64,000 nucleotides of DNA from Candidatus Latescibacterota bacterium (GTDB taxonomy: Bacteria > Latescibacterota > UBA2968 > UBA8231), in the NCBI GenBank assembly GCA_965217585.1, contig OZ244561.1:4512001-4576000 (forward strand). The letters are read 5' to 3'. Positions within the stretch are counted from its first letter, which is position 1, and each line of letters opens with the position of its first letter. A program made the translations under genes and the position numbers. Shown piece after piece: positions 1,543-57,385 of the stretch. Under the pieces are notes generated by a model. It was not told where the DNA came from, did not search any database, and saw only the letters and a program-made list of their open reading frames with translations.

Positions 1543-1571
1543 CGTAGCATTCCTTTCTCTTGGGTCAGTGT

Positions 1572-22424: not shown

Positions 22425-22901
22425 TCAGCCACCAGAACACTGCCTCTCAATGAACGTCAGCACCTCAACGCTTCGCTTCAAGTATTCGCGAACACGCGCC
22501 ACGGTAATCTGAGCGCTGCCACCATGAACTATCTGGTTCCTATTATTCATAATTGAGTCAATGGCATCCCGACGTACGCCGGACTCGCTTACTAGGAATT
22601 GATCTAGTTCCTGCTTCCAATTCGCGTTGAACGCTCCTGCTACCTCGAGGAATCGTCCAGCTTTTGGGTTTGTGACTTGACTCAGGGTGTCACCTACATA
22701 CCGAGCCACGTATGGACTGGACGAGTTGGAAGCGAACTCTGAATAAATCGTCTGCAGTCCGTCTTCTATAAGTCCAGCTACCATAACGCACAAATACCGA
22801 CCCCAGTGGCCCTGCAATTCAATGTCCTCAGTGGCGACCTGAGTGCGATCAACTAGCTGCTGAAGACGTGTCAGTTGCTGGTTCAATTTGCTATTGTGCA
22901 T
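22425..22901 (-). CDS. HEPN-domain protein (MAE_28990/RiboL-PSP-like)
   Basis: Helical; Rx4H motif RNQIVH; overlaps DUF262 stop. Confidence 0.75.
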   Translation of the reverse strand: MHNSKLNQQLTRLQQLVDRTQVATEDIELQGHWGRYLCVMVAGLIEDGLQTIYSEFASNSSSPYVARYVGDTLSQVTNPKAGRFLEVAGAFNANWKQELDQFLVSESGVRRDAIDSIMNNRNQIVHGGSAQITVARVREYLKRSVEVLTFIERQCSGG

Positions 22902-24006: not shown

Positions 24007-24309
24007 TTTTTCTCCTAAAATAATCGCCATCGCGTTGCCTTATCATATCACTCCGGACCGCCACATAACATTCTCTACACGGCGAGATTAAGGCACAGCT
24101 CTGCGACCTTCGACGGTCACTGTTGCCAGGAACGGGATCAATTGATTCCGTCAACCTAATAGGCATAATAATCACCGTTATCGCTACTCCTCTGTCAAGG
24201 TGCTAAGGGTGCATGTAAGGGTGCATGTAAGGGGTCCCTGACAATCGTTTGCGGTCTCGCAGGGACGTTTGGAAGTATAGGGAGTGATGTTCAACGAGAA
24301 ACCTTCATA

Positions 24310-35407: not shown

Positions 35408-35806
35408 ATGAGCGACGTTAAATGCGCGAGGATGCTGCTGGATGCGGCTGAGCGCAATGTCGCGGCACTTCGCGTCATGTGCCGTTCCGACGAAATCTCC
35501 GACGAGATTTTCGGCTTTCACGTTCAGCAGGCCGCCGAGAAGCTGTCCAAGGCTTGGATCTCACTGCTGGGCGAGGTGTATCCGCTGACCGACAATATCG
35601 AAAGATTGCTCAATCTCCTCGCCGATCAAGGCGTCGCTGTAGAGTCCTTCCGCAAGCTGATCGATTACACTCCATACGCCGTCGAGTTCCGTTATACAGG
35701 TGTCGGCTCAAGTACCGAAGCAATCGATCGCGCTGGTGCGCTCGCGATCGTCGAATCGTTGCTGGAGCAGGTTCGGCGGCGGTTGGCAGAGGTGGAGGGG
35801 GTGTGA
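35408..35806 (+). CDS. HEPN-domain protein of HEPN/MNT type, no MNT partner adjacent
   Basis: GFHVQQAAEK..KA, YAVEFRY. Confidence 0.75.
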   Translation: MSDVKCARMLLDAAERNVAALRVMCRSDEISDEIFGFHVQQAAEKLSKAWISLLGEVYPLTDNIERLLNLLADQGVAVESFRKLIDYTPYAVEFRYTGVGSSTEAIDRAGALAIVESLLEQVRRRLAEVEGV

Positions 35807-36020: not shown

Positions 36021-36890
36021 GAAGCTGTTGAGTTATTCAGATGCATTTAGCGACCGTACTCTTTATCATGGCAATACGAATCATGTTCTCTGCGGATTGG
36101 GTGAGGATTTCGAAGTCTTTCGCCAAGCGTCGAAATCCACCCAACCAAGCCAAGGTTCGTTCGATGATCCAGCGTTTGGGCACCACTTGGAACCCTTGGG
36201 TTGGTTTATCCGCTATATCGAGTCGCAACCCCAACAGGTTTTCAACGAATTCAACGGTGGTACCGCGATAGCCTTGGTCGCCGCAGAAGGCTTCGACCGA
36301 ATCATACTTTTCCGCGACCCGATCACATACGTCCCATCCTTGGCTGGTATCGGCCACATGGGCGGCATGTACTTGGATGGTCAGCATATTACCCAGCGTA
36401 TCGGTGGCGAGGTGGCGTTTACGTCCTTTGATCTTTTTTCCCCCCATCCACGCCTCGATCCTGACTGGCATATTGGGTTTTAACCGATTGCGAATCGATC
36501 AAGGCATAGGTCGGATGTTCGTTTTTGCCCTGCTTGTGACGGGCGCGCTCATTCAGCGCGTCCAAGGCTTGTTCCCACACGCCACGCTGATTCCAGCGTC
36601 GGTAATGGTCATAGACGGTATCCCAAGGGGGAAAATCAAGCGGCAGCATCCGCCACGGAATACCCCCTTTGACGACATATAAAATGGCATTGACCACCTC
36701 GCGTTTGGCATACTTGCCGGGGTTGCCCCGGGGATCAGGACGGTCGAAAAACCCCGCGATCAGGGCCCATTCTGGATCAGTCAAGTCACTTGGATACCCG
36801 CCCATACTAAAAGCCTCCCTGCGCAAAAAAGACAGCAAGCAATACATTATACATACAATACATACAGAGCTTTTTTAACTCAACAGCTTC
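36021..36890 (-). mobile_element. IS5-family insertion sequence, 870 bp
   Basis: Perfect 15-bp TIRs GAAGCTGTTGAGTTA (36021-36035) and TAACTCAACAGCTTC (36876-36890); TTA duplicated at 36018-20 and 36891-93. Confidence 0.93.
36037..36805 (-). CDS. IS5-family transposase in two frames (36419-36805 and 36037-about 36447)
   Basis: YPSDLTDPEW, IDSQSVK, GKKIKGRKRH, DQGY, RWIIERTLAWL; frames meet at a G6A6G run. Confidence 0.88.
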
Positions 36891-37049: not shown

Positions 37050-40000
37050 ATGTCTTTGAACACAGCAGAGTTGGACAACCAAGAAAAACTCAAGGAAGAG
37101 CTACAAAACGCCCAAGAAGCGTCCAAGCTCGAACGTCTCGCGGCTGCTTTGCTTAGTCGTCTTCTCGACGTGCCGATTGCGGTCGCCAAATCCGGCTTTC
37201 AACATGGCGCGGATGCTGGTCCGGCTGGACAGCAAGGGCGACGGTTTCGGGTGGAATGCAAGAAGTATAGTGATAACAGTAGCTTGAGTGAACGAGAACT
37301 ACTTGGGGAGATTGACCAAGCGCTAGCGCGGGATGAGGCCCTTGAAGCTTGGGTTCTGGTTGTGACCTGTAGCGTTTCAGAACAGATCCGGCAATCGCTT
37401 GATCAGCATGGCGAACAGATGGGTGTCCCCATCGTGATTATCGCTTGGATAGATCAAGATCACGAAGTGGCACCGCTTGCAGCATTGTGTGCATTCGCTC
37501 CTGATTTGGTCGAGAAAGAATTCTCAAAGGAAGCTGGCGCGGCGGCTCGCTCCCTTCAAGCCATATCAGAGGGAGCAATCGAAAGGTTGCGACGCGACTT
37601 GCAGTCTTGGTGTTTGGGGTTTGAAGCAATACGGATGCGCTCTCACGATAAGCTCGATAAGATTTGGAACTCGCCGCAAGAATCAAAGGCTGCAATCGGA
37701 CAAGACGCGGCTGGGGGCGCTCAAAATAAGAAGGTCAAACGTAGCGCAGTACATGAGGCACTGAATGCGTGGTGGCAAGGACCGGCTCGGGATGGTGCCC
37801 CGGCTGCTGTAGTCGGATTGGAAGGGACCGGCAAGACATGGGCGACTTTCCACTGGTTGATCGACAGTAAGGACACGCAACCAATTGTTCTGATAACGCC
37901 ATCCTCTGCGGTAGCCGCCATCGGAAATGTCTCCGAAACCATCGTGAAACAACTCCTAGCGGATAGCCTTCACGAGATGAGCGGGATACGGGATCGGGAA
38001 CACTGGCTCCGCCGGCTCGATTATCTACTTAAACGTCCGATCTGTGAAGGACCAGTCCTGACCATATTCTTCGATGGCCTGAACCAAGAGCCTTCCGTTC
38101 AATGGCTACGACTCTTGCAAGTTTTGCAAGGCGAGACGTTTGGGGAACGCGTAAGGGTAATCGTCAGCACTCGCAATCATCATTTTGAAGAAAAGTTGTC
38201 AGGGCTTCGCGACCTCGTCGTACTAGCCAAGCGGGTTGACGTAAATCTCTATGATACGGCACCCGGGAGCGAACTCGACCAAATGCTTGAGTTCGAGAAT
38301 CTCACGCAGGCCGACTTGCGTCCTGATGTGCTTGAGTTGGCGAGTAACCCCCGTCTTTTCAAGCTCGTAGTACGTTTTCGAGAAAATCTGACTGGGACAG
38401 GTCGAATGACAGGCCACCGCCTGTTGTGGGAGTACGGACGCGACACTTCCGGGATTCTGGCTGGCAGGTCGTTCAGTGAGAGCGAGTGGAGAGAATGGCT
38501 CAAGGAAATTGCTCAGAAACGTCGGAAAGGTATTAAAGAATACTCAGAGAAGTCGCTCGTCGCGACGGTGAACCGTCCAGATCTGAATAAAAACGAAGTG
38601 TATGCACGACTCAGCGACATAATTGACGGTCGGTTCGCCACACGTAGCGCATCGGGCGACCTGCAACTCACTCCTGCGGTCATTTCACATGCCCTCGGCG
38701 TTGCGCTTCTGAACGATCTTGATCAAGTAAACTCGCCAACTTTTGAAACCTTAGATGCCACGTTGGCAGAATGGCTTGATCCCATCGCGGGTCTTGATGA
38801 ACAAGTGGAAATCCTGCGTGCGGCGGTGTCAATTTTGGTAGAGCAGGGACGAGCGTCAGAGGCACCTGTTCCCGGAGTGCTCGTTACGGCATGGCTGCAA
38901 AGCCAGAATACACCCGACGAGCATCGCCAAGAACTTGCCGATCTTGCCCCGCATTTTCCGAATGCTCTACTCGACGCGATCGAATATTCGAATAGTCACG
39001 CTCACAATTCCGCTAGAGTTTGGGCCGTGAACGCGCTGAGTACAATCCCGCGAGACGATAGCGCAGTCCTTGATATGATTGTCAAACGGTCCTGCTGCTG
39101 GCTGGGCGTTGTCGCCTGTGACAGCGATAGGCAGTCGGATAGGCTTAAACGCCTGATCGGTATCGATACCCCGGGTCCGATTACGGTCGTCGACGTCGAT
39201 CTCAAACTGGTCGATCAGTCCTCTAGCTTGATGAAAGCTGTAGTGCCTTTGATCGTCGAAGGCTTTCCGTTGGCTGACGCACTGCCGATTTTCGAGACAG
39301 CAGCCGTTGCGTTAGCGGTCGGAGATCGCAGTAGTTGTTGGGATGGTCTGAAGTGGCTCTGCCTGCTCAACGAAGTTGATTCCAATGAAACGGCGACGGC
39401 TTTACGTGGATTGTCAGAAGAAGTCAGCCGCCGCCAGCCAGAACAGGGCGTACATCCGGATCTTCCGAAGCGCATTGCTGCGCTCCTGCTGTGGCTGACA
39501 GGTCAGGACGAGGACGAGGACGCTGCTGTGTCTATAGATCCCGGCATTGGCCGCCCGCTCACCTATAAGAAAGACTATCTGCCACAGCCCGGTCGAAGCA
39601 TGTTCCCGCTGGAGCGGCGACATGCACACAGCGTCCTCACCGACACAGAACTACCTCTACACTCCCGCGTACAGCGGACCGAAGAGCTATGGCTTGATCC
39701 GAGTTTTGGTCCGCCAGCGAGTTTTGTTGAAGAAGTTTGCGCCGCAGCGACCTGTATTGATGTTGAGAAGTTGAACCGACACGGAGATCTCACTTCTGAG
39801 GATGATGACTTTGAAAGACTGGAACCGGTGCTGGCTCGATGTGCGCCGGATCTGCTCGCGGATCTAATCCGCCGCAAGATGCGGAGTATGGCTACCTGTC
39901 CGCCGGAGTCTAGGCACTGGAGCGCTATCCACGCTACCGAGCACCTAGTGCTGGCGGGCGAGGATGAGGCGGCAGCAGCGAGAGCGTTACGTCTGAATGT

Positions 40001-41465
40001 AGAGGATGAAGATGATGATGCTTCTGACGCCAATAACCTCCTGTTGATAGAGATCCGAAATCTGGATGCACAGGACCAATTCGACGAATTAATTCATGCG
40101 GATTTGAAGTACATCTCGACCAACTTCGCCAAAATCGTGCGTCCTCCGACACCGAATGATGTCGATGGCCTGATCGCTCGCTATGCCGATGGATCACTCA
40201 AACAGCAACGCGACCTGCTCACTCTATTGTCGATCCACCCGGTTGAACTCACGGACACGGCTTGGTCATGGGTTGAAAGATGTGCGAAATGTCAAGACAA
40301 GGATTCTCGCGGATTTGCCTTCCGAATTCTAACCCATGCTGATCCAGTGCGGTCCGGTCAAACGCTTGAGACTGATGGTTGGTCTTGGAGCCGGGACGAG
40401 CATGACTGGGTCAACGATTACGGAACGGACGCCCTTATCAAGGCCACGCTGGATATTCCTTTCGACGACCTAGCACCAAGACTGGCACCTTGGTGGTTGC
40501 TGGAAGCTGTTCGTCAACGTGGAGCTGACCCCACCGAAGTAAGGCTGGCAGCTAAAATCTTCGGTCAATTACTCGATGGGAAGCATCGCGCGGAAGCTAT
40601 CTCCTATTGCGCGGAGGATTTCGTTCCCGTCCTGCAACATGCACCTGATATTGTCGAACAGTGGCTTGAGGGTTGCACTGAGGTCACGACAGATTTTCAG
40701 CACCGTATTTTTTTTGCTGGAAGAGCTTATATTGCGCTCTGCGAGGCCCTCCTTGCACACGCCCCGATGCAGGGCGCGCAGTTGTGTCGTACTCTTTGCA
40801 CTCCCATGATAACACAATATATCGGAGGCGTAGAAAATCTCTTATATATAGTCTTTCGCGTTCCAGACTCACCTACAGTAACGGCGCTCCGAGACGAACT
40901 GGCTGGGTTAGAACATTGCCATACCAATCAGGCACTATTCAATCTGGCAATCGCTGCGTCTTATAACGGTAAGGACGATTGGCTCGCCACTCTCATTGGG
41001 CAAGATAAAGCATCGAAATTCGCTTGGCGACGGGAACGCGCCGCAGTCCTCGCGAGATTCACCGTGAACAATAAGCTACCGGTCGACGACGCTTGGCCTA
41101 ATGGGGAAATCAAAACTGGCTACGCCAATCTTGCTCAGAAAGCAGCACGTTATAGGTGGGCTGAGGCATGTGCCCGCCACTGGTGGCGAGCCTATCTTGC
41201 GTCCTCTGATCCGACTGAGGCTTACGCCGCTTGGGTTTTATTTTTGCGCTCGGCGGATCGTCGTTGTCGGGTCTGGATGAAACAAGATGTTGAAGCTGCA
41301 CAAGAATCGGACGACTTCTTCAAGCTCAAGATGATCCATGCTCGACTTAATCAAGGAAAGCTAGAGAATGCTTTGAAGAAGCGCGAGGACAAGCTCGACA
41401 AGAACTTTTTGGATCGTCGGATTTTTGCGGGTGTAGGCCCTTGGCCAATATACGTGCCGAGTTAG
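37050..41465 (+). CDS. Restriction-endonuclease-like + STAND/NACHT-like ATPase + long helical region (Avs/NLR-like)
   Basis: N-terminal E..GAD..VECKKY PD-(D/E)xK pattern; Walker A GLEGTGKT; Walker B IFFDGLN; VIVSTR. Confidence 0.72.
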   Translation: MSLNTAELDNQEKLKEELQNAQEASKLERLAAALLSRLLDVPIAVAKSGFQHGADAGPAGQQGRRFRVECKKYSDNSSLSERELLGEIDQALARDEALEAWVLVVTCSVSEQIRQSLDQHGEQMGVPIVIIAWIDQDHEVAPLAALCAFAPDLVEKEFSKEAGAAARSLQAISEGAIERLRRDLQSWCLGFEAIRMRSHDKLDKIWNSPQESKAAIGQDAAGGAQNKKVKRSAVHEALNAWWQGPARDGAPAAVVGLEGTGKTWATFHWLIDSKDTQPIVLITPSSAVAAIGNVSETIVKQLLADSLHEMSGIRDREHWLRRLDYLLKRPICEGPVLTIFFDGLNQEPSVQWLRLLQVLQGETFGERVRVIVSTRNHHFEEKLSGLRDLVVLAKRVDVNLYDTAPGSELDQMLEFENLTQADLRPDVLELASNPRLFKLVVRFRENLTGTGRMTGHRLLWEYGRDTSGILAGRSFSESEWREWLKEIAQKRRKGIKEYSEKSLVATVNRPDLNKNEVYARLSDIIDGRFATRSASGDLQLTPAVISHALGVALLNDLDQVNSPTFETLDATLAEWLDPIAGLDEQVEILRAAVSILVEQGRASEAPVPGVLVTAWLQSQNTPDEHRQELADLAPHFPNALLDAIEYSNSHAHNSARVWAVNALSTIPRDDSAVLDMIVKRSCCWLGVVACDSDRQSDRLKRLIGIDTPGPITVVDVDLKLVDQSSSLMKAVVPLIVEGFPLADALPIFETAAVALAVGDRSSCWDGLKWLCLLNEVDSNETATALRGLSEEVSRRQPEQGVHPDLPKRIAALLLWLTGQDEDEDAAVSIDPGIGRPLTYKKDYLPQPGRSMFPLERRHAHSVLTDTELPLHSRVQRTEELWLDPSFGPPASFVEEVCAAATCIDVEKLNRHGDLTSEDDDFERLEPVLARCAPDLLADLIRRKMRSMATCPPESRHWSAIHATEHLVLAGEDEAAAARALRLNVEDEDDDASDANNLLLIEIRNLDAQDQFDELIHADLKYISTNFAKIVRPPTPNDVDGLIARYADGSLKQQRDLLTLLSIHPVELTDTAWSWVERCAKCQDKDSRGFAFRILTHADPVRSGQTLETDGWSWSRDEHDWVNDYGTDALIKATLDIPFDDLAPRLAPWWLLEAVRQRGADPTEVRLAAKIFGQLLDGKHRAEAISYCAEDFVPVLQHAPDIVEQWLEGCTEVTTDFQHRIFFAGRAYIALCEALLAHAPMQGAQLCRTLCTPMITQYIGGVENLLYIVFRVPDSPTVTALRDELAGLEHCHTNQALFNLAIAASYNGKDDWLATLIGQDKASKFAWRRERAAVLARFTVNNKLPVDDAWPNGEIKTGYANLAQKAARYRWAEACARHWWRAYLASSDPTEAYAAWVLFLRSADRRCRVWMKQDVEAAQESDDFFKLKMIHARLNQGKLENALKKREDKLDKNFLDRRIFAGVGPWPIYVPS

Positions 41466-42138: not shown

Positions 42139-42816
42139 CTAAAGCTTCAGAAAGTGTTTGGCGGCAGCCATGCTGGGGGCATACTCTAAGTCAAGATCAC
42201 TGAATTCATCCTTAATGTCAGCCCGAATTATTGCCTTATTAGGTTCCGCGTAATCTTTCTTGTTAGAAGATACAAACACTATTGGAGTCGTTATACCGTC
42301 GCTGCGAAGTTGGCGAACGCGTTCGAGATATGTCTCCAAGATTACGCAGTCTTTCATGTTGCCCTTCCCCCTTCGAGCCGGAGCGAGTGCCCTATTGACT
42401 CGATCAAACGCGCGTTCGAGGATTTGCGAGGGTTGAGGCACTGGAGTGCCGGCCTTCAACCAGCGCTCTGCCACCTTACGACATCGATTCTCGTGATTGT
42501 TCAAATGACTTAAATCGACTTCACCCGGCGATTCATACAGCGTAGACAACTCATCAAGCTTGGACACCTGATCTCGAAATTTTGCAAGTGAAGTCTTGGC
42601 TTCCTCATGAACGACATCTACCGTGTCGCAAAACTCCTTACGCACCTGTTCGGCAATAAGGGCTGTAAGCCTTTTACCACTCTCTACCTCGGGCAAGAGC
42701 TCCAAAGATGCGGCCTGATCGAGTACGCGAATATCGTCTCTCGCAGGGTCGCGCATAATGTCCAGAATTACACATGTGTCTAAGCACAAGAATCGCGTGT
42801 CTAACATTGTCGTCAC
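42139..42816 (-). CDS. PIN-domain protein
   Basis: CLDTCVILD, EQVRKE, KDCVILE, FVSSNKKDY acidic tetrad. Confidence 0.75.
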   Translation of the reverse strand: MTTMLDTRFLCLDTCVILDIMRDPARDDIRVLDQAASLELLPEVESGKRLTALIAEQVRKEFCDTVDVVHEEAKTSLAKFRDQVSKLDELSTLYESPGEVDLSHLNNHENRCRKVAERWLKAGTPVPQPSQILERAFDRVNRALAPARRGKGNMKDCVILETYLERVRQLRSDGITTPIVFVSSNKKDYAEPNKAIIRADIKDEFSDLDLEYAPSMAAAKHFLKL

Positions 42817-43586: not shown

Positions 43587-45305
43587 TTAGCGCAAAAAGA
43601 GCAACTTGCGCGTCAATTCTACTCCTTCGGTCTCTAAGCGATAGAGATACACGCCGCTGGCCACGACGTGGCCGCTGTGGTCGCGGCCATCCCAAGCGGC
43701 TTCGCCGTACCCGGCCGCGACTTGGCCGGTGGTGAGGGTGCGCACCTTCTGCCCGTGGAGATTGTAGATGTGTAGGGCGGCGGGCGCGGAGTCGGGCGCG
43801 AGAAAGGGCAAGATCGTGCCCGCATTGAAGGGGTTGGGGTAGTTGGGCAAGAGGGACCAGCTAACCGGGGTCGAGCCAGTGGTCGCTTCTATGGCCGTGG
43901 GGAGGGCGCGGATGACCTGGGGCGGGCCAGAGGTGGTTAGCTGCTCGATGACCGCGGCGGCCGGCTGGCCGACGAGCGGGAGCGGACCAATGCCGCCGGC
44001 AAAGGGGCGGGAGCGGAACTCGCGGCCGTCGGACAGGGTGATAATCAACTCCCATTCCTCCTCGGGCCGAGGGTCCGCCAAGTCGACGGCGCAGTCCATC
44101 CGGATGTCGGCCGAGCGGACATTGCTGACGTCGGGCAGATCGGGATTGTAGGCGAACAGGGGATCGCGGGTCATCTCGTCGGCCGAAAGGGTGGTGTAGA
44201 GCCGAGTGAGATAGGGCTTTTCCTCTACGAGCTGTCGTACGCTTTCCAGCGGCTCGACCACGATGCGCTGTAAGTCAGCGGCAAAGGCGTTGGCGTCAAA
44301 GGCGAAGTCGGCGAGATAGCGGTCATAGGCACGCATGTTGTTGTAGAAGGAGCGTTCGGCGACGTCTTGGAGCCGGCCTTCCTCCCGCGCTTGCTCATAG
44401 GCTTCGCGGTCGCCAGCAAACATCACTTCGAGCACCCCTTCTTCAAGCACGGCTGGTGGCATGGGAATGTGGCGGCGGATCAGGGTCTGCATCTGCGCGT
44501 CGTCGGGGAAACCCTGCACGAAGGCTGCGTTGAGAAAATCGGCAGGGTGATCCTGCTGGCGCAATTGCGCTAGGTCGAAGTCCCACCAGAAAAAGTTGCG
44601 GACGATCTGGCTGGGACCAGCGTAGTCGGTGACAAACGCTTGGCCTCCGGCCTCGTTTGCGGCTTGGGTGACGACCTGTTGATAGTTGAAGCCGCCGTTG
44701 AACCAATCAATGAGGGCTTCGTTGATCTGCACGTGCCGGTAGTTGGTAGGGACGGCGCGGTACTCGCCCAAGATATATGCGAAGATGCCTAGGTCCGGCT
44801 CGGTGGCTACGGCGGTGAGGCGGATGGGGATGCCGGGCGCGTCGGCCGCATAGGTTACGGCGATGGGCTGCAGGTCGCCGACATCGCGGTCTGGCGCGAG
44901 CTTGAGCGCCAAGAAGTAGAAGCCCTCTTCCACGTAGGGCGTCAAAAGCTCAACCCCCAGTTCGCCGAGCTGGTAGCCGTTGTCCACGAGCCAATCGACA
45001 ATGGCTTGGGCGTCGTCCGAGGAAACGACCGCGGTGTCGTAGGGGCCGACCTGTTCTTGGGCGACCACTGCTATGTGACCGTAGCTTTCCGTGGTTTCAG
45101 CGCAGCCTAAGCAGAGCCCTGGGAAAATGACATCAAATAAATCGAAGAAGAGGTAGCAGCTATCCCCAAACTCCTCAAAGTTTATTTCAAAGACGGGCTG
45201 GGTAGCAAATTGTAGCAGGGCGAAAATTTGGTTGTGGCTGACGGCGAGTTCGGGCACCGCCGGCAGGGGTAGTATCCACGCAAAGTCCGCGGCCGCGCCG
45301 CTGTA
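43587..45305 (-). pseudogene. DUF2330-like protein with FlgD/T9SS-like C-terminal domain, 5'-truncated
   Basis: Begins mid-domain (YSGAAADFAWILPLP) right after the upstream stop; VGPYD, IPIRLTAVA; NYPNPFN tail; no start or signal peptide. Confidence 0.65.
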
Positions 45306-45306
45306 T

Positions 45307-46995
45307 TTAGTACGACCGCGTCGTCCGCCCCAGCTCCTCGGCCTCAATCCACTGCCGCAACACGGCACCAGAGCGCGCCAGCAGCGCTCGATAGGGTCGC
45401 CCCAACGCCTTGTTTTTTGGGTTTTTTCCCGACTGCCGGGGCACGGCGTTGAACCGTCCCCGCACCTCGACGATGTTGCGGCTCGGATTGTGCATGGCGA
45501 TCGTCAATACCCGGGCGCTGTGGCCCTCCGCATCGACCTGCATGGACCACACCGACTTGCTGCCCCGCCGACAGTTGGACACATAGGAGGCGACGCAGTG
45601 GTTCATCGCCCGTCCTTCGAGCGTGAGCTCCTTTTTGGAATTAAGCTCGCGGATGGTCCAGCGCAGCCCTTCTTCTTTGTCGTCCATCCACTCAAAGTTA
45701 GCTATGCCCGACGACTCCCAACTTCCTGAGGGCTGGCGGTTATCGCGGGCTAAGCGTTCGTGCCACTCCTCAACTTGGCGCAGGAGCTTGACCGCGCTGC
45801 GGCCCTTCATGGTGTAGCTAGGTTGCGGCGGCTCGCCCTCCTCTGTGGGGACGTACTTCTGGTGGTTTATATAATCGACGATGGGTCCCACCATATCCGG
45901 GTCGAGCATGGGGTTTTCCACGAAAAAGAGTACCACTGTGCTCCAGAAGGATTCGTCGGCAAAACTGCGGCCCAATTCCGTGGCTATCACGGCCTGGGCT
46001 AGCACCTCGCTGCCTTCCTGACCCACCACTTGTGCCCAGCGCAGGGCCTCGGTCGCCGTCAGTTCGCCCGGTGCCTCGGTAAAGACGTGCGCCATGCGCT
46101 TGGAGAGCACCAGCGGCAGGTCGGCCGTGCGGATGTTCTGCCCGCTGCCCACGTGGACGAACCACCCCTGCTGGCGTTGGGCCTCTTGGTCCCAGCCACC
46201 GAACCACGCCGAATCCAAGCAGGTCGGCACGTCGTAGCGGGCCAATAAAAACCGCGTCAGCGAGGCGAATTGCCGCCGGGGGTTGCGGCTATCTGGCTTC
46301 CACTCGGCTGGTGACTGCTGCCAAGCGTCGCTGTGCCGCGCCAATGCACCGAGGGCCTCGACGAAGGTATTGCCCTCCACCCGCCCCAAGCGCTGGAGAG
46401 TTGGTCGCGCGTCGAGGAGGTTGGGCGCTCGCTTCTCTACGTGCAGGAGCAAATCCCGTAGCTGTGCCCGCTGGTCGCCCGCCAATCCCGCAAAGGCCCG
46501 ATGGATCAGGCGCAGGACCTCAGTGCGCAGCTCTTCCTCGGCGATGGCTCCGGCCCAGAGCTGGTGGACGAGGTCTTTGGTGCGCCGGCTGTGCTTGCGG
46601 CCCGTTTGCAGGGCTTGGGTGCTCTGGAACTGCTGGTGGAGCTTGAGTTCCTTGGTGCGCTGGGCGGCGCTTTTGTGGATGGCGTCGCCGAGTCCCTGTT
46701 GCCGGCACCACGTCTGATAGGCGGCCACCCCGTCTAACCCTAGCTGCGCGACGTGTTGTTGAAAGGCACCTTCGGCTTGGGCGGCCTGTTGGTCGCGCTG
46801 ATGAGCCGCGCGCTCTTGTCGCCGCTCTTGCCAAGTTTTGCTCAGGGCCGCGCTAAATCCGTGTTGGCGGCACCAGACCTTATAGGCTTCGATGGCCTCT
46901 AAGCCTAGCGATTCCATGTGCGCGCCCAACTCGGCATTGGCGCGCGCGGTGGCACCCCGGCGTCGGCTCTTTTTGCGCTTGAGTTGTTTAGCCAT
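45307..46995 (-). CDS. PcfJ-like domain protein
   Basis: EEWHERL, IRELNS..EL..EGRAMNHCVASY; start MAKQLK overlaps upstream stop. Confidence 0.75.
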   Translation of the reverse strand: MAKQLKRKKSRRRGATARANAELGAHMESLGLEAIEAYKVWCRQHGFSAALSKTWQERRQERAAHQRDQQAAQAEGAFQQHVAQLGLDGVAAYQTWCRQQGLGDAIHKSAAQRTKELKLHQQFQSTQALQTGRKHSRRTKDLVHQLWAGAIAEEELRTEVLRLIHRAFAGLAGDQRAQLRDLLLHVEKRAPNLLDARPTLQRLGRVEGNTFVEALGALARHSDAWQQSPAEWKPDSRNPRRQFASLTRFLLARYDVPTCLDSAWFGGWDQEAQRQQGWFVHVGSGQNIRTADLPLVLSKRMAHVFTEAPGELTATEALRWAQVVGQEGSEVLAQAVIATELGRSFADESFWSTVVLFFVENPMLDPDMVGPIVDYINHQKYVPTEEGEPPQPSYTMKGRSAVKLLRQVEEWHERLARDNRQPSGSWESSGIANFEWMDDKEEGLRWTIRELNSKKELTLEGRAMNHCVASYVSNCRRGSKSVWSMQVDAEGHSARVLTIAMHNPSRNIVEVRGRFNAVPRQSGKNPKNKALGRPYRALLARSGAVLRQWIEAEELGRTTRSY

Positions 46996-50858: not shown

Positions 50859-51080
50859 ATGGACCCGATCAGAATTAGCACGATCTCATCCAAAGGCCAG
50901 ACCACGGTGCCCGTGGCCATTCGCCGTTCGCTGGATCTACATCCGGGAGACGCCATCGCCTATCGAGTAGAAGGCGATAAGGTCAGCATCCACAAAGCCG
51001 CAAAAATCGACTTAGAGTGGGTCAAGGCTCTCGAACAAACCCTGGCGGAGTGGCAGGACGAGGAAGACGATGATCTGTAG
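50859..51080 (+). CDS. AbrB/MazE/SpoVT family antitoxin
   Basis: STISSKGQTTVPVAIRRSLDLHPGD; acidic tail. Confidence 0.85.
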   Translation: MDPIRISTISSKGQTTVPVAIRRSLDLHPGDAIAYRVEGDKVSIHKAAKIDLEWVKALEQTLAEWQDEEDDDL

Positions 51081-51405
51081 CCGCTTTGACATCGTTGATG
51101 TGCCTTTCCCGTTCAGCGATGTGCCCTACGCCAAACGCCGCAAGGCCCTGGTACTGTCCGACGCTGTTTTTAACCAGAAAAACGCCTCCAGCCTGCTTAT
51201 GATGATCACCAGCGCCGCCCGCAGTGCTTGGCATCTCGATGTGTCGCTCGAGCAGTGGAGCCAAGCCGGCTTGCGCAAACCCTGTCTCGCCCGGATGAAG
51301 CTGTTCACGTTGGACAACGGACTCATCCTCGGTACGGTGGGGCGCTTGACAGCGGAAGACCAGCAGAGGGTAACTCAGGCACTGCGAGCGGCACTGCCCT
51401 GCTGA
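51070..51405 (+). CDS. PemK/MazF family toxin
   Basis: FDIVDVPFPFSD..KRRKALVLS, MITS, GLRKPC. Confidence 0.88.
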   Translation: MICSRFDIVDVPFPFSDVPYAKRRKALVLSDAVFNQKNASSLLMMITSAARSAWHLDVSLEQWSQAGLRKPCLARMKLFTLDNGLILGTVGRLTAEDQQRVTQALRAALPC

Positions 51406-51540: not shown

Positions 51541-52035
51541 TTATTGGTCCGCTAAAGGGCCGAGCAATTCGTCTAGTTTGGCCTTGAGCTTTTTTTCGTC
51601 TCCGGGCCGATACCCTTGGTGCTTGTACCACACCGTCCCGTCGGCTGCAATAATCAGGGTCGCCGGGACGCCCGCTAGGTGGAACTGCTTGAGCACCTCG
51701 TTGGTCTTGTCGAGCAAGACCGGCAACTTGAGCTTGTGGCGCTGCATAAAGGGCCGCACTTTGGGCAGGTTTCTGGGGCCATCGACATTGATCGTCAGTA
51801 CTTGGACGCCGCGCTTGGCGTATTCTTCAGAGAGGGATTGGAGCTTGGGCAGGCTCTTGATACAGGGCTTGCACCAAGTCGCCCAGAAGTCGAAGACCAC
51901 CGGCCCTTTTTTGAGCGCCTCCACCAGCGAGAAGGTCGATCCGTCGAGATTTTCCAACACGAGTTGCGGTGCCTTTTCGGCGCGAGCCGAGCCGCTGAGT
52001 AGCAAGCAGGTTGTCAATGCGAAAATTGGTTTCAT
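51541..52035 (-). CDS. Exported TlpA/ResA-like thiol-disulfide oxidoreductase
   Basis: Signal peptide; DFWATWCKPC; cis-Pro GVP. Confidence 0.9.
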   Translation of the reverse strand: MKPIFALTTCLLLSGSARAEKAPQLVLENLDGSTFSLVEALKKGPVVFDFWATWCKPCIKSLPKLQSLSEEYAKRGVQVLTINVDGPRNLPKVRPFMQRHKLKLPVLLDKTNEVLKQFHLAGVPATLIIAADGTVWYKHQGYRPGDEKKLKAKLDELLGPLADQ

Positions 52036-52080: not shown

Positions 52081-52109
52081 ATCCGCAGATGGACGCAGAT
52101 GGACGCAGA
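52081..52109 (+). repeat. Short tandem 10-mer repeat (CGCAGATG(A/G)A)n, copy 1
   Basis: ATCCGCAGATGGACGCAGATGGACGCAGA; related copies at 53708 and 56576. Confidence 0.8.
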
Positions 52110-52184
52110 ATAGTATTCACAAGACGATCCACCTATCGAATCGTTCAAGTCATTCAGGACTGCTATATCTATAGGATTCAAATC

Positions 52185-53708
52185 ATGCGCTCAGTTTTTG
52201 CATTTGTACTGCTGCTGGCAGCCCCCCTCCAAGCCGAGTTTAGACTTTCGACCCTGACCGAAGCCCAAGTCGGCAATCTGCCCGGCGCGCAGCCCAGCGA
52301 TTTGCGGACGATCTACCATCAGTTCAGCCTCGACTATGCAGTCGCCGACCTCCAGTTCGGGGTTCGCGGCGAGACCTTCGGCGCTAGCGCCTCCAGCCGC
52401 AACTACGGCGAGCTTCTCCAGCGCTCCGCTGTCTATCGCCGGAGTGGCTTTGAGGCCACTATTGGCAATTTCTACACCATCGTCGGCAGCGGCCTGCTCC
52501 TCCACGCCTTTGAACTGCCCGGCGTCATCACCGAGGAGCGGGGTGCTCGCCGCCGCTACCAGATCGTGCGCGATCTCGACGGCGTTCAGGCGCGCTATCG
52601 CGCCAAGCGGGCCGAAGTGTTGCTGTTGCGCGGCGCGCCGGTCAACAGCACGCTGCCGCCTGGCTTGGAGGGGGTTGAGCGCCGCCCGGACGCGCTCCAC
52701 GCCGGCTCGCTCCAGCTCAAGCCGCACCCGCATTTTGACGTTGGTTTTAGCGCCATCCGCTACGCAATCGGCAGGGGACAGGAAACGAGCGCGGCCTTCA
52801 ATGCCCGCTGGCGACTCGCGTCTGTGCTGGCTCGTCTCGGCCTCACCGGAGTGTATGCCGATGTCCAAGGCGAGTACGCCCAGCGCGATGTGGCGCTCAA
52901 GCGCTTCTTTTCGCTCGACCGCAGTTTGGGCCGCGCCCTGTATCTGGCGGCCACCTTGGCGTCCGGGCCGTGGGGATTGAGCTTGGAATACAAAGACTAC
53001 CAAGATTTCGCCCTCGAACACATCAACAATCCGCCGCCCCTGATCCGCGAACACTCGGCCTATCTCCTCAACCGCATCACGCACGATGTGCTCGCCGATG
53101 ACGAGCAGGGCTACCAAGCTGAACTGAGTTATGTACTACCCAGCGGTCAGACCCTCACTGCCAATGCGACTCGCGCCACGCGCCGCCGCGATCCAGGCTC
53201 AGCCGACGACAACGCCCTGCGCGAATTCTTTGTGGAGCTGGAATCGCCCTTGGGCCAACGCGCCGATGTGCAGCTTTTTGCCGACTTCAGTCACAACCAG
53301 ATTCTCCTCGACGACAAAAGCCGTCTCTTGGGCACGCGCTGGGCGTGGTCTCCAGACGGGTTCTACACCTTTGAACTCGACGCCCAATTCCAAGACGTCG
53401 ATCGGCGGTTTGGCACCCTAGCGCTTCCTTACACCAATCACTACTATGCTCTAGCAGTCCACCGCGCCCCCAGCCTCTCCGCCGCCGTGCAGATTCAGCG
53501 CACCTCCGACAAATTGGAAACCGGGGCCGATCCCTCCGGCATCACTTGGTGGCGGGGCCTCAACATCGGTGCCGACATTGGCGAGGGCCACATCATCAAT
53601 GTTTTCGCCGGCCAGCGCCGCTCGGGCTTGGCCTGCACGGCCGGCATCTGCTATGAGGTGTTAGGGTTTAAGGGCGTTGAAGTCCGGCTGCTCAACCGCT
53701 TCTTCTGA
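52185..53708 (+). CDS. Outer-membrane beta-barrel, DUF6029-like
   Basis: Signal peptide; IGNFY..GSGLLL, EYKDY, C-terminal GLACTAGICYEV..FKG and terminal Phe. Confidence 0.7.
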   Translation: MRSVFAFVLLLAAPLQAEFRLSTLTEAQVGNLPGAQPSDLRTIYHQFSLDYAVADLQFGVRGETFGASASSRNYGELLQRSAVYRRSGFEATIGNFYTIVGSGLLLHAFELPGVITEERGARRRYQIVRDLDGVQARYRAKRAEVLLLRGAPVNSTLPPGLEGVERRPDALHAGSLQLKPHPHFDVGFSAIRYAIGRGQETSAAFNARWRLASVLARLGLTGVYADVQGEYAQRDVALKRFFSLDRSLGRALYLAATLASGPWGLSLEYKDYQDFALEHINNPPPLIREHSAYLLNRITHDVLADDEQGYQAELSYVLPSGQTLTANATRATRRRDPGSADDNALREFFVELESPLGQRADVQLFADFSHNQILLDDKSRLLGTRWAWSPDGFYTFELDAQFQDVDRRFGTLALPYTNHYYALAVHRAPSLSAAVQIQRTSDKLETGADPSGITWWRGLNIGADIGEGHIINVFAGQRRSGLACTAGICYEVLGFKGVEVRLLNRFF

Positions 53709-53738
53709 TCCGCAGATGAACGCAGATGAACGCAGATG
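53708..53738 (+). repeat. Tandem 10-mer repeat, copy 2
   Basis: ATCCGCAGATGAACGCAGATGAACGCAGATG between convergent genes. Confidence 0.8.
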
Positions 53739-53754
53739 TTGCTTGGATGTGCCC

Positions 53755-54597
53755 CTACCTAAGCAGCAGCAGCTTGCGGACCTCTGTGTACTCGTCGGCT
53801 CGCAACTGGTACAGATACACTCCGCTGGTCACCGCTTGCCCCGCTTGGTCGCGGCCGTCCCAGCGCACGGAGAACGTTCCGGCCACGCTCGGCCCTTGTA
53901 CAAGCACGGTCACCGGCTGGCCGAGCAGATTATAGATCGTCAGCTCGACTTGGCTCGGCTGCGGCAGCGCGAAGCGGATCACCGTATTGCTGTTGAACGG
54001 ATTGGGCGCGTTTTGCGCTAGGGCGAAGGCTTGGGGGACGGATGCCTGATCAGACGTTTCCACCGCCGTTTCCACCGTTTCCACTACTTCCTCCTCGATG
54101 GGAGGTAGATCGGCCAGCGCCAGCACCACCTCGTCGCGGAGTTCGCCCACGGGCATCAAGGATTTGGTCTTGAGGCGGAAGATGCCCTCGTGGTCAATGA
54201 TGGCAAAGGTCTGGTTCCCTTGCCCATACGCGATAGCCATCTGGCTGGCCTTCAGCAAGAGGGGCATCGTAACTCCCTTGCCTAATCGCCAGCGGGTGCG
54301 CAACTGTTCCGCGGTGCCGTCCCACACCTCGGCCCCCAGCGCGACAAAGCGCTCGTCGGCAAATTCCTGCCAGAGTTCTTCGAAGCTCTCGGCACGCGAG
54401 AGACAGGCCGGTCAGTTAAAGCCAAAAAAGAAAATCAGCACGACTTGGCCCTCGAAGTCGCTCAGGGCTGCTTGGCCGCCGTCGAGCCGGTCTAAGAGGA
54501 AATCGGGGGCCAGGTCTCCTTCTTGCGGCGCTTGGGCGTCTAGGGCAGAGGCCCCCAACACCGCTAAAGTTGTCAAATGCAACAAAGGTTTGTTCAT
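53755..54597 (-). CDS. Exported AhpC/TSA-like redoxin selenoprotein (UxxC) with FlgD/T9SS-like C-terminal domain, 280 aa
   Basis: ORFs 54412-54597 and 53755-54327 share a frame; single TGA at 54412-54414 gives FFFGFN-U-PAC; downstream hairpin; NAPNPFN tail. Confidence 0.82.
54386..54402 (-). promoter_or_regulatory. Candidate bacterial SECIS hairpin
   Basis: CUCUCG-CGUGC-CGAGAG starting after a 9-nt spacer from the UGA. Confidence 0.6.
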
Positions 54598-54608
54598 AAC
54601 CAGCCTCC

Positions 54609-55469
54609 TTAGTTTTGCCGCACGAACTTCTGAATGCGGTGGTCGGCCTGCACTTCACCCACGTAGAGGTCGCCTTTTGAGTTCATCCAGATGCCGTGGG
54701 GACAGCCGAGGAATTCCCCGAGTTGGTCGCTGCGCTCGCCCGATCCCCACTGAGCAAGCCATTCGCCGTCGAGGTTAAGAATGCTCACCCGCTGGTCGAG
54801 TTCCGCGACATAGACCGTATCTCCGTCGAGGAAGATCGTATCGGGATGGTGAAAGCCGCCCCATTCCTCTAGGTAATTGCCGTCGAGATCGAAGAACTGG
54901 ATGCGGTTGTTGGCGCGGTCGGCCACCATCAGCCGTCCGCGCTGGTCCACGCGCACGCAGTGGGGCAGATCGAACTCCCCTGGGCCGGTGCCGGGACGGC
55001 CCCACGTCTTGATGAATTCGCCGTCGGGTGAATACTTGTGGATGCAGGTGTTGCCGTAGCCGTCAGACACGTAGATACAGCCGTCGGCGTCGAGCGCCAA
55101 GTCGGTAGGCAACCGGAAGGGCTGGCCGTCCGCGCCCTCTTGGTCCGGCGTCCCCAAGGTCATCAGCAGTTCGCCGTCGCGGGTGAACTGGCGCACGCAG
55201 TGGGTTTCGCGCTCGACGCACCAGATTTGGTCGCGGTCGTCGATAAAGATGCCGTGGGCGTCCTTCAGTACCTCGTCGCCCCACGAGGCGATGAAGCGCC
55301 CCTCGCTGTCGAAGACGATCATGGGATGCTCGCTGCGGCTGTACACATAGACCCGATCTGCGGAATCGCAGGCTACGGCCGGAACCCAGCCAAAGCGCCA
55401 GCCGTCCGGCAACTCGAACCAATCTTGCTGCACTTCATAGGTGAATGCTCCGCTGCCTACTAAAGTCAT
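54609..55469 (-). CDS. NHL-repeat beta-propeller (peptidylamidoglycolate lyase-like)
   Basis: FRLPTDLA, YVSDGYGN, FDLPH, VADRANNRIQ. Confidence 0.85.
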   Translation of the reverse strand: MTLVGSGAFTYEVQQDWFELPDGWRFGWVPAVACDSADRVYVYSRSEHPMIVFDSEGRFIASWGDEVLKDAHGIFIDDRDQIWCVERETHCVRQFTRDGELLMTLGTPDQEGADGQPFRLPTDLALDADGCIYVSDGYGNTCIHKYSPDGEFIKTWGRPGTGPGEFDLPHCVRVDQRGRLMVADRANNRIQFFDLDGNYLEEWGGFHHPDTIFLDGDTVYVAELDQRVSILNLDGEWLAQWGSGERSDQLGEFLGCPHGIWMNSKGDLYVGEVQADHRIQKFVRQN

Positions 55470-55515
55470 GGGATGCTCCTCTTTGCAATGATCTTCGCGT
55501 TTCTCCGTAGATAAC

Positions 55516-56439
55516 TCAAATTCCCCGCAATCTCTCTATCTCGTCGGCGGGCAAAAGCTGTGCTCCGGCTGCAGCGTTGGCGCGGGCTTGGGCCGCCGAT
55601 TTGGCACCGGGGATGGCCACTGGCGCGGCTGGATGGGAGATGACGTACTGGAGGGCTTTTTCCACCATGGTCTCTCCGGGCGCGGCGACCTCGGCGAGGC
55701 GCTCGACTTGTGCTAGCTGAGCCTCGAATTTGGCGCGCTGTGGCTCGCCGGCGTTGAGGGGCTGCCGCACTTCGTCGGTAAAAACCGACTCTTTCGTGTA
55801 GCGCCCAGACAAAAGTCCCTTGGCCAGTGGCCCCCGCACCAGCACGGCAATGCCGTGCTCTTGGCAATAGGGTAAAAGCTCGGCTTCGGCCTGGAGGTTG
55901 ACCAGCGAATAGTCTATCTCCACCACCGAGCAGTCGCCTTGGGCGTTGAAGCGCTGGAGCACTTCTAGGCTGTCGGTCGAAATGCCGAAGGCCCGCAGCC
56001 GCCCTTCCTCGACGAGTGCAGCGAAAGCATCCAAGTAGATCGATGGATCGGCGATGTTGCCTTCGTGGCACAGCAGCACATCGTGCCAGTCCGTGCGCAG
56101 CCGGTGCAGAGAGGCGTGGGCGCACAGGCGGATCATATCGACCGTGGTTTTGGGCACGCCCTGCCCGGTGCGCGTCCCCCAATTGCCGATTTTGCTGACC
56201 ACAAAAACTTGGTGCCGGATGCCGGCCAAGGCGCGCCCCAACCGCTCCTCCGACAGCCCGTTGGGCGTGCCGTAGGACTCGGCTGCGTCGAAGAGATTGA
56301 CGCCGCAATCAAAGGCTGTGTTCACGGTGTCCCAAGCTGTGGCTTCGTCGATGGTTCCCCATTGGTTGCCAATGTTCCAAGTTCCCAAACCGATGGCCGA
56401 GACCGGCCAGCCGGTCCGGCCAAATGCTCTGTACAACAT
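55516..56439 (-). CDS. Aldo/keto reductase
   Basis: SAIGLGTW, FDAAESYG, SLHRLRTD, IPGAKS. Confidence 0.9.
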   Translation of the reverse strand: MLYRAFGRTGWPVSAIGLGTWNIGNQWGTIDEATAWDTVNTAFDCGVNLFDAAESYGTPNGLSEERLGRALAGIRHQVFVVSKIGNWGTRTGQGVPKTTVDMIRLCAHASLHRLRTDWHDVLLCHEGNIADPSIYLDAFAALVEEGRLRAFGISTDSLEVLQRFNAQGDCSVVEIDYSLVNLQAEAELLPYCQEHGIAVLVRGPLAKGLLSGRYTKESVFTDEVRQPLNAGEPQRAKFEAQLAQVERLAEVAAPGETMVEKALQYVISHPAAPVAIPGAKSAAQARANAAAGAQLLPADEIERLRGI

Positions 56440-56575
56440 GGGTGGTCTCCTTTCTGAGTTTCAAGGTAAGCCACCGCCTGCGCCGGTCAAGCGGTGCGCG
56501 TTGCTGGGGATAGCCGAGGTGCCTACTTTAGAAGCCGTCTGAAAACCCCTCGCGGCTGTCGTCCGGCGGCAAAGT

Positions 56576-56604
56576 ATCCGCAGATGAACGCAGATGAACG
56601 CAGA
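56576..56604 (+). repeat. Tandem 10-mer repeat, copy 3
   Basis: ATCCGCAGATGAACGCAGATGAACGCAGA. Confidence 0.8.
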
Positions 56605-56645
56605 GGGGGATAACGGGCGGCATCTTAATGCCTTGGGAGGCTGCT

Positions 56646-56846
56646 ATGGAATACTTTGGCAAAGGGCTGTACCTAATTTTCTTCGCGCTAATTTTCTGGT
56701 TTGTCCACCGGGCTCACGGTCGCGGCCTCGGCCGCCTCGTCGAGGACAACCACCGGGCACACGAGCGGGTCCACCACACCCTAAAAGAGCACCCGGAGGG
56801 CGGCACGTGGCCCCAATACAAGCAATGGATGGAGGAGGCAGCATGA
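56646..56846 (+). CDS. Small His-rich single-TM protein coupled to msrA
   Basis: GGGAGG RBS, hydrophobic N-terminus, ATGA overlap with msrA. Confidence 0.6.
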   Translation: MEYFGKGLYLIFFALIFWFVHRAHGRGLGRLVEDNHRAHERVHHTLKEHPEGGTWPQYKQWMEEAA

Positions 56847-57385
56847 CTTTGGAAACTACTACTTTGGGCGCGGGTTGCTTCTGGTGCGTCGAAGCCGTGT
56901 ATCAAGACCTGCGGGGGGTCGCCAGCGCGGTCTCCGGCTATATGGGCGGTCCGTCGGAGCACCCCACATACCAAGCCGTTTGCAGCGGCCAGACCGGCCA
57001 CGCCGAGGTCTTACAACTGCAATTCGACCCCGAGGTCACTAGCTTTGACGATTTGCTCTACATATTCTGGCGCACGCACGACCCCACCACGCTCAACCGC
57101 CAGGGCGCGGACTCCGGCACCCAGTACCGCTCGGCGATTTTCTACCACAGCCCTGAGCAGCAAGCGATAGCTGCCGCCTCCAAGTCCGCCACGGACGCGA
57201 GCGACCTCTGGGCCGATCCGATTGTGACCGAGATCGCGCCCGCCAGCGCCTTTTGGCCGGCCGAGTCGTATCACCAAAACTACTACCGGCTCAACCCCAA
57301 CCAGCCCTACTGCGCGATAGTTATCGATCCCAAGATGCAGGCGTTCCGCCGGAAGTTTGCCGGCCGCCTCCAGCCGACTGCCTAG
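56843..57385 (+). CDS. msrA: Peptide-methionine (S)-S-oxide reductase MsrA
   Basis: GAGCFWCVE, TGHAE, HDPTTLNRQG, AESYHQNY. Confidence 0.95.
   Translation: MTLETTTLGAGCFWCVEAVYQDLRGVASAVSGYMGGPSEHPTYQAVCSGQTGHAEVLQLQFDPEVTSFDDLLYIFWRTHDPTTLNRQGADSGTQYRSAIFYHSPEQQAIAAASKSATDASDLWADPIVTEIAPASAFWPAESYHQNYYRLNPNQPYCAIVIDPKMQAFRRKFAGRLQPTA

Follow-up and report, generated by a model that had tools for sequence, protein, structure and literature searches.

A probable exported selenoprotein of Latescibacterota joining a UxxC redoxin to a C-terminal sorting domain

A 64,000-nucleotide stretch of a Candidatus Latescibacterota genome (GenBank assembly GCA_965217585.1, contig OZ244561.1, positions 4,512,001 to 4,576,000 of the forward strand; hereafter the window) carries a minus-strand gene, 53755..54597, which likely encodes an exported selenoprotein. 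The predicted product is a thioredoxin-fold redoxin in which an in-frame TGA occupies the first position of a CxxC-type motif, followed by a C-terminal domain of the kind used for sorting by a type IX secretion system (T9SS). Our estimate of likely applies to the combined statement. We hold the selenocysteine (Sec, U) reading by itself more firmly than this, and export through a T9SS less firmly.

One reading frame across a conserved TGA

Two minus-strand open reading frames (ORFs) are listed at this locus, both in the same frame: one of 61 amino acids (54412..54597) ending in FFFGFN, and one of 190 amino acids (53755..54327). An original prediction, made from the letters alone, took them for a single frame split by a TGA at the first CxxC position, with 28 open, redoxin-like codons in between and a signal peptide at the N-terminus. 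The analysis bears out each of these points, the signal peptide by inspection. With the TGA read as Sec, 54597..53755 encodes a 280-residue protein (280 codons and a TAG stop), and the same layout recurs in orthologous loci L001–L009. The sole in-frame TGA is codon 62 (54412..54414), the first position of U-P-A-C in the context FFFGFN-U-PAC. Codons 63–90, which separate it from the GTG of the downstream ORF, are open, and a single Pfam domain runs through them and bridges the TGA. AhpC-TSA was matched at residues 27–139 (E 1.6e-13; 51.1 bits, cut-off 26) and Redoxin at residues 25–138 (33.5 bits, cut-off 26.6). Among 74 TGA read-through candidates in the window, a Pfam domain lies across the TGA in this gene alone. 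Cys65, the predicted resolving partner in UxxC, is encoded by TGT (54403..54405). A signal peptide is predicted at 54535..54597 (about codons 1–21), with an MNK n-region, a hydrophobic core and an ALDA-Q boundary. This n-h-c layout (residues 1–21/23) was judged by inspection, and AlphaFold2 (AF2) gave low predicted local distance difference test (pLDDT) values for residues 1–20.

A scan of GTDB genomes recovered nine further loci matching residues 1–280 (L001–L009), labelled Latescibacterota with one Gemmatimonadota, and so giving ten full-length loci with the window. The TGA stands at the same codon in all ten. All copies are free of frameshifts and of further stops, even though single codons have been gained or lost in the signal peptide and a linker has expanded, in frame, by up to ~100 codons. 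The protein databases record the same break. A search for short proteins returned 53 matches, 52 of which are N-terminal pieces ending at the residue just before the TGA (67–98% identical; 50 of them 60–61 amino acids long), and these 52 are representatives of 90%-identity clusters. The signal-peptide-like layout is kept in them, as it is in the Cys-containing homologues. The best 76 database matches of near length covered at most 74% of the query, and all 19 that were aligned begin past residue 74. Relatives keep the TGA, one of the two points on which the original prediction had said it could be refuted. Among full-length Cys forms, the protein databases searched yielded none above ~47% identity.

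Selection acts on both sides of the codon. Pooled pairwise ratios of nonsynonymous to synonymous substitution (dN/dS) were 0.22 for codons 25–61 and 0.24 for codons 63–165; the signal peptide gave 0.30 and the C-terminal domain (CTD) 0.14. The similar values flanking the TGA indicate that both halves are translated and similarly selected. As far as comparison of these loci can tell, the TGA is a functional codon and no lesion. The ten loci are closely related (dS ~0.4), which tempers the argument, as the conservation is partly shared ancestry. Neighbouring proteins are 71–98% identical across the loci, two weak matches to enolase paralogues excepted.

More distant relatives carry cysteine. A HMMER search with residues 1–165 retrieved 7617 relatives at E ≤0.001, of which 284 passed E ≤1e-10. 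Twenty-one homologues were hand-picked from 150 listed; they are 25–40% identical over their full length, and all but one (20/21) measure 245–285 amino acids. Both motif positions are Cys in every one of the 21, mostly as C-P-x-C. The column that holds Cys in 21/21 distant homologues holds TGA in 10/10 loci, the pairing that had been proposed for checking, while the second motif position is Cys throughout the homologues and an invariant TGT codon in the ten loci. In the alignment of 24 members, Redoxin was matched by 23 and Por_Secre_tail by 20. A separate sequence search of the PDB paired U62 with the leading Cys of the WCPPC motif in entry 3kcm. Judged from these alignments, the window gene is the Sec form of a family of ~250–275 amino acids, found in other FCB-group (Fibrobacteres–Chlorobi–Bacteroidetes) bacteria, that combines a redoxin with a sorting tail. 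The two forms also differ further along the chain. The Cys forms have a conserved T-Y-D-R before the strand xVID, and the Sec clade reads (S/G)-(Y/N)-Q-T-F-A-I-I-D-H-E-G (window residues 124–135).

A separate group of database proteins (P0339, P0340, P0342, P0343 and P0346) is ~35% identical to the window protein and 175–179 amino acids long. All five begin ~30 residues past the CxxC column, as do the shortened calls in the Sec clade. This group may be another clade in which an in-frame stop has taken the place of the redox Cys, a hint that Sec forms may have arisen in more than one branch of the family.

The redoxin domain (54103..54525, residues 25–165) was assigned to the TlpA/ResA-like thioredoxin fold by Pfam, PDB sequence search, AF2 and Foldseek. 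An AF2 model built from the family alignment (mean pLDDT 88.8) shows a thioredoxin fold at residues 25–165, with U62 between a strand at 52–58 and a helix starting at 63. ResA and other TlpA-like reductases were the top Foldseek matches, ResA having a TM-score (normalized to the target) of 0.88–0.90 and a root-mean-square deviation of 1.7–1.8 Å. By sequence, the closest solved structure is 3kcm, a Geobacter thioredoxin-family protein (E 2.5e-10). Scores against the NCBIfam equivalog models fell far below their cut-offs (ResA 33.5 vs 170; TlpA 15.8 vs 230), which points to a shared fold class and not to an orthologue of either. A peroxiredoxin proper was also considered and rejected. The true peroxiredoxin motif is PxxxTxxC(U) (PMC13188914), whereas F-F-F-G-F-N precedes U62, with neither Pro nor Thr at the motif positions. 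Peroxiredoxin chains appeared in the PDB sequence search as weak matches (E 0.001–0.004). In the hidden Markov model alignment, the Pro of G-V-P-E-T-F in 3kcm has no Pro counterpart in the Sec clade or in the Cys homologues. We take this residue to be the cis-proline of the thioredoxin fold, in which case its lack is unusual.

Candidate insertion element and selenocysteine machinery

The original prediction noted that bacterial UxxC selenoproteins have their insertion element just 3' of the UGA, and it described here a 6-base-pair (bp) stem with loop CGUGC, the loop starting 16 nucleotides (nt) after the UGA. Such a hairpin is present at 54402..54386. The candidate selenocysteine insertion sequence (SECIS; 54386..54402, minus strand) pairs CUCUCG with CGAGAG, begins 9 nt past the UGA and has as its first loop base the 16th nt after it. 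Taken as 54384..54404, it gains one more G-C pair with a bulged U (7-bp stem). The bacterial SECIS model calls for a loop of 3–9 nt, a stem of 4–16 bp, a UGA-to-loop distance of 16–37 nt, a minimum free energy (MFE) of ≤-7.5 kcal/mol, and a G at loop position 1 or 2, after which G or U is usual (PMC13188914). The loop length (5 nt), the G-U at loop positions 2–3 and the 6-bp stem are all within this model. Seven of the 10 orthologues have the hairpin in their MFE fold over 60 nt. Of the 1589 TGA trinucleotides in the window, 31 (2.0%) precede a perfect Watson–Crick hairpin that has SECIS-like geometry and a stem of 6 bp or more, rising to 265 of 1589 (16.7%) when G-U pairs are permitted.

Nucleotide-level constraint is evident over the same region. 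The minimum of synonymous variation in the gene, among 266 seven-codon segments, lies at codons 61–70, and segments of twenty codons over this region gave 0.09 against a median of 0.23. Codons 65–70 each use one codon in all ten loci, while the matching residues vary freely in the Cys homologues, which indicates that it is the RNA, not the protein, that is constrained. We infer that the hairpin at 54386..54402 may act as the SECIS. A second conserved hairpin, UGGCAG-GAAU-UUGCCG (54357..54372, minus strand), is found in the MFE folds of all ten loci and also falls where synonymous variation is low. Its loop begins 46 nt past the UGA, outside the 16–37 nt SECIS range.

Several properties of the candidate hairpin tell against this role. 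Its MFE is -6.4 kcal/mol alone and -7.2 kcal/mol with the extra pair, short of the -7.5 threshold, and a loop start at nt 16 is at the extreme edge of the permitted distance. Folding 60 nt of the window sequence leaves it out of the MFE structure (pair probability ~0.01), and a 66-nt region was as stable as its shuffles (z -0.09). The stem is identical in 10/10 loci, so there is no covariation signal. Rfam gave no match to SECIS or to another credible family, either across the whole window at gathering score or in 54300..54480 at E ≤10.

The search for Sec machinery likewise gave no support. No tRNA was called in the window, and none of its 141 ORFs has a SelA, SelB or SelD domain. No tRNA-Sec was found in the 80 flanking loci either (1.31 Mb in all, from many genomes), and tblastn of E. 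coli SelA, SelB and SelD over 1,308,046 bases returned only two weak partial matches. Since the sample is small relative to genomes of ~4.5–6.6 Mb, this null is uninformative rather than negative. Nor did other selenoprotein genes emerge to accompany this one. None was found among the 74 read-through candidates of the window. The 80 loci yielded 2395 such candidates, 158 of them with CxxU or UxxC, and nine of these belong to the family described here. Of the 149 others, ten were hand-picked and had no domain across the TGA, the remaining 139 being judged by eye. A 94-nt 'tRNA-Trp (cca)' called by ARAGORN (L077, 2880..2973, minus strand) was considered as a tRNA-Sec and rejected. It lacks Rfam support (E ≤0.01), comes from an unrelated Bacteroidota metagenome-assembled genome and is probably a false call.

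Sorting domain, location and competing readings

The protein ends in a Cys-free domain (53758..54006, residues 198–280), a seven-strand beta-sandwich of T9SS type A CTD or FlgD-Ig-like type. TIGR04183 matched residues 198–277 of 280 with 41.2 bits (cut-off 23), and FlgD_ig matched residues 205–267 (E 1.4e-10; 41.5 bits, cut-off 27). AF2 modelling of the domain alone gave seven strands at a pLDDT of 90.6. Foldseek returned FlgD, PorZ, PorU, the CTD of a T9SS-bound cargo and that of mirolase. T9SS CTDs are described as Ig-like seven-strand beta-sandwiches whose final strand contains a conserved Lys (PMC11285876), and K275 in the last strand is invariant here. The NPFN domain had been noted on two other genes, and both indeed carry it (18173..20350, plus strand; 43587..45368, minus strand). 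The same tail is present on many unrelated proteins of these genomes (591 confirmed stretches), as is typical of a sorting signal. An acidic, E/T/V-rich disordered linker (54007..54102, residues 166–197; pLDDT <50 at 173–183) connects it to the redoxin. The linker is a low-complexity E/T/V/A repeat, ~30 residues long in the window and 90–130 in L006–L009 (around 10500..10850 of those loci), always in frame.

These features suggest the following route. Translation would begin at the ATG at 54597 behind a strong Shine–Dalgarno sequence. The hairpin 9 nt past the UGA would recruit SelB with Sec-tRNA(Sec), and Sec would be inserted at codon 62 in place of termination. The signal peptide would then direct export over the inner membrane through the general secretory (Sec) translocon, followed by folding. 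U62-x-x-C65 would form a redox pair at the N-terminus of helix 1, with the linker of variable length as a spacer, and the type A CTD would bring about passage through the outer membrane, with release or tethering at the surface. The selenol/thiol pair could serve in thiol–disulfide exchange or in reduction of peroxides or sulfenic acids. A surface-displayed or secreted selenoenzyme had been proposed from the outset, and the conserved TGA, the Cys pairing and the selection on both halves support the selenoprotein part of that reading. Such a site is, as also stated then, uncommon for a bacterial selenoprotein. It has precedent in outer-membrane and substrate-binding families tabulated in a 2026 review, among them a type of TonB-dependent receptor and the substrate-binding subunit of an ABC system (PMC13188914). 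We tentatively extend the proposal, with belief falling slightly short of doubt, to a first selenoprotein as T9SS cargo. This would be a selenol/thiol oxidoreductase that a flexible acidic tether keeps outside the Latescibacterota cell, at its surface and beyond known cellular reductants, and in which Sec would have been fixed for its resistance to irreversible over-oxidation and its low-pKa reactivity.

The serious rival is a selenoprotein that stays in the periplasm, its FlgD-Ig-like domain being a binding or anchoring module and its re-reduction falling to a membrane system of CcdA/DsbD type. Much of what weighs against T9SS export speaks for this. Pfam Por_Secre_tail is under its cut-off (23 vs 27 bits), and the domain fits FlgD, ranked first by Foldseek, at least as well as it fits T9SS CTDs, so that the fold is not specific to T9SS. 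No T9SS core genes were recognisable among the Pfam matches of the window, and no literature placing a T9SS in Latescibacterota was found. The excerpted list of possible T9SS holders in PMC11285876 names Gemmatimonadetes and other FCB phyla, with Latescibacterota unlisted. A surface redoxin would lack an obvious electron donor, and the conserved neighbours described below are a TlpA-like redoxin of the periplasm and what is probably a protein of the outer membrane. Set against these points are the TIGR04183 score well over its cut-off, the position of the domain at the extreme C-terminus with an invariant last-strand Lys as in T9SS CTDs (PMC11285876), its occurrence on many unrelated proteins, three of them in the window, and the existence of HBP35, a known T9SS cargo with a thioredoxin motif (PMC2907840, PMC3120885). 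On balance we regard a periplasmic location as unlikely, while weighing it seriously.

The remaining rivals concern the TGA itself. Read-through of the UGA to a residue other than Sec (for example Cys, Trp or Gly), in which the local context promotes near-cognate or suppressor decoding, would also yield a full-length redoxin. In its favour are a full-length frame that is clearly under selection, a hairpin that is marginal by SECIS rules, and the failure to find Sec machinery in the window and the 80 loci. Yet TGA is the ordinary stop for 19 of the 48 Pfam-supported ORFs in the window, which indicates that the codon has not been reassigned. The recoded site is moreover the nucleophilic Cys of CxxC, the classic Sec site in thioredoxin-fold selenoproteins according to PMC13188914. 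TGC or TGT would serve better for Cys, and this reading does not easily account for a TGA fixed over more than 50 sequence clusters. We judge such read-through improbable.

A split into two products, an exported peptide of 61 residues and a protein of 190–218 residues from an internal start, is exactly what gene callers and NCBI annotations give. Close relatives are always stored as a ~61-amino-acid piece and/or a piece of 163–258 amino acids, the pieces being named 'redoxin domain-containing protein' (60 amino acids) and 'T9SS type A sorting domain-containing protein' (the remainder). That standard callers would miss the gene had been anticipated, and all close database relatives are split at the TGA. 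One Pfam domain and one predicted thioredoxin fold nevertheless cross this codon, and the 28 codons after it are conserved as protein. The called internal starts are inconsistent among relatives (residues 75, 88–89 and 91–93), and the downstream piece would be half a fold with a secretion tail and no signal peptide. We consider two separate products highly improbable. Least credible of all is a pseudogene with a TGC/TGT-to-TGA nonsense lesion in a decaying redoxin gene, for although TGA is one base off a Cys codon and Sec machinery was not seen in the window or the 80 loci, the TGA is kept in 10/10 loci and ends 52/52 fragments, the ten copies have no frameshift or second stop and a dN/dS of 0.22–0.24 on either side, and the searched databases hold no Cys-bearing close relative.

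Neighbouring genes and comparison with known systems

Directly upstream of the predicted selenoprotein gene lies an NHL-repeat beta-propeller gene (54609..55469, minus strand; Pfam NHL) without a signal peptide. The Shine–Dalgarno sequence AAGGAGG (54604..54610, minus strand; read from the sequence), 6 nt 5' of the ATG, overlaps the TAA stop of this gene, which suggests an operon with translational coupling. The two genes are probably co-transcribed, and the NHL-repeat gene is syntenic in eight of the nine full-length orthologous loci (the exception being L005). In eukaryotes, NHLRC2 joins a TlpA-like thioredoxin domain to an NHL propeller. A scan of 53600..56700 for promoters and terminators gave nothing above chance.

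On the other side, a convergent DUF6029 gene (52089..53708, plus strand; Pfam DUF6029) has a signal-peptide-like start at an internal Met and ends in NRFF, a C-terminal Phe presumably like that of outer-membrane barrels. Its product is a probable outer-membrane protein. Synteny with the selenoprotein gene extends over L001–L010, the short contig L001 including only the end of the DUF6029 gene. Divergent from it is a second, ordinary redoxin of exported TlpA/ResA-like type with WCKPC (51541..52035, minus strand; Pfam and NCBIfam). This gene is conserved beside the selenoprotein gene in L002–L010, with none on the short contig L001. Either neighbour could possibly be linked to the selenoprotein in function, for example through a redox relay or as an outer-membrane partner. 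MsrA (56594..57385) and MsrB (1141..1956) were considered as possible extracytoplasmic partners and rejected. Both ORFs have a long N-terminal extension of spurious appearance, and the MsrA motif reads GCFWC, with Cys.

Elsewhere, the window contains many ORFs of defence or toxin–antitoxin type. These are two PemK/MazF-like ORFs, a RiboL-PSP HEPN beside GmrSD_N, a HEPN, a PIN_12 and an AbiEii-like AAA_21 (16501..16845, 51070..51405, 22425..24030, 35408..35806, 42139..42816 and 5813..7171). An IS4/IS5-type transposase (36037..36847, minus strand) consists of two overlapping ORFs, DUF4096 and then DDE_Tnp_1, and a frameshift or programmed frameshift is possible. A 1471-residue ORF at 37050..41465 (plus strand) has no Pfam match at E ≤1e-5.

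What is new here is a secreted redoxin family in its Sec form, bearing a sorting tail that the literature searched has not connected with any selenoprotein; the type of enzyme is known. The finding corrects a systematic annotation error, in which more than 50 sequence clusters are held publicly as two meaningless fragments, and adds a Sec form to a widespread, unstudied secreted redoxin family. It also points to selenium use in Latescibacterota. Our literature search found no report of Sec use in this phylum or of a selenoprotein with a T9SS tail, and Sec decoding, if true, would be a trait added to it. Should the T9SS tail work, the protein would be a natural selenoenzyme at the cell surface, which raises the question of what re-reduces it. 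General understanding of selenoproteins is unchanged, the thioredoxin-fold UxxC kind being the commonest in marine metagenomes.

That UxxC redoxins are recognised bacterial selenoproteins, as the original prediction had stated, agrees with the predicted families in the tables of PMC13188914 and PMC2398784. These include a 'Prx-like thiol:disulfide oxidoreductase', one named 'thiol-disulfide isomerase-like, cd02966', a 'Redoxin family, PF08534' and TlpA-like proteins, and the same papers place UxxC thioredoxin-fold selenoproteins among the most abundant in marine metagenomes. Like the window protein, the marine UxxC peroxiredoxin-like selenoproteins (Sargasso Sea and Global Ocean Sampling) have a PF00578/PF08534 redoxin, Sec first in UxxC and many Cys homologues. 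They were recognised in the same manner, by an in-frame TGA aligned to Cys and a downstream hairpin (PMC13188914, PMC2398784). The T9SS-type sorting tail sets the window protein apart, as the accounts of marine UxxC selenoproteins in these sources, from which the likeness is drawn by description, mention none. HBP35 of Porphyromonas gingivalis is alike in being T9SS cargo that reaches the surface with a thioredoxin-like motif and a cleavable CTD (PMC2907840, PMC3120885, PMC11285876). This likeness too is one of description, and HBP35 differs as a Cys protein of another phylum with a role in haem binding.

The Cys-form family, represented by 'redoxin family protein [Gracilimonas sediminicola]' and 'T9SS C-terminal target domain-containing protein [Balneola sp.]', is the nearest match in architecture. 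Its members have the same length, are 25–47% identical and share the signal peptide, the FFFGxxCPxC redoxin, a short linker and Por_Secre_tail. They differ in having Cys where the window clade has TGA, in carrying T-Y-D-R ahead of the strand that in the clade reads Q-T-F, and in being annotated at full length. In structure and in sequence, the redoxin domain is closest to the ResA/TlpA/CcmG reductases, which are likewise exported with CxxC at the start of helix 1. They are membrane-anchored in the periplasm, in contrast, and have no secretion tail. Etrx1 and Etrx2, thioredoxin lipoproteins exposed at the surface of Streptococcus pneumoniae, also place a TlpA-like fold outside the cytoplasmic membrane, and PDB entries 2yp6 and 4hqz were among the matches. 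They receive electrons from CcdA and are linked to MsrAB. Unlike the window protein, they are lipid-anchored, belong to a Gram-positive host and are Cys-based.

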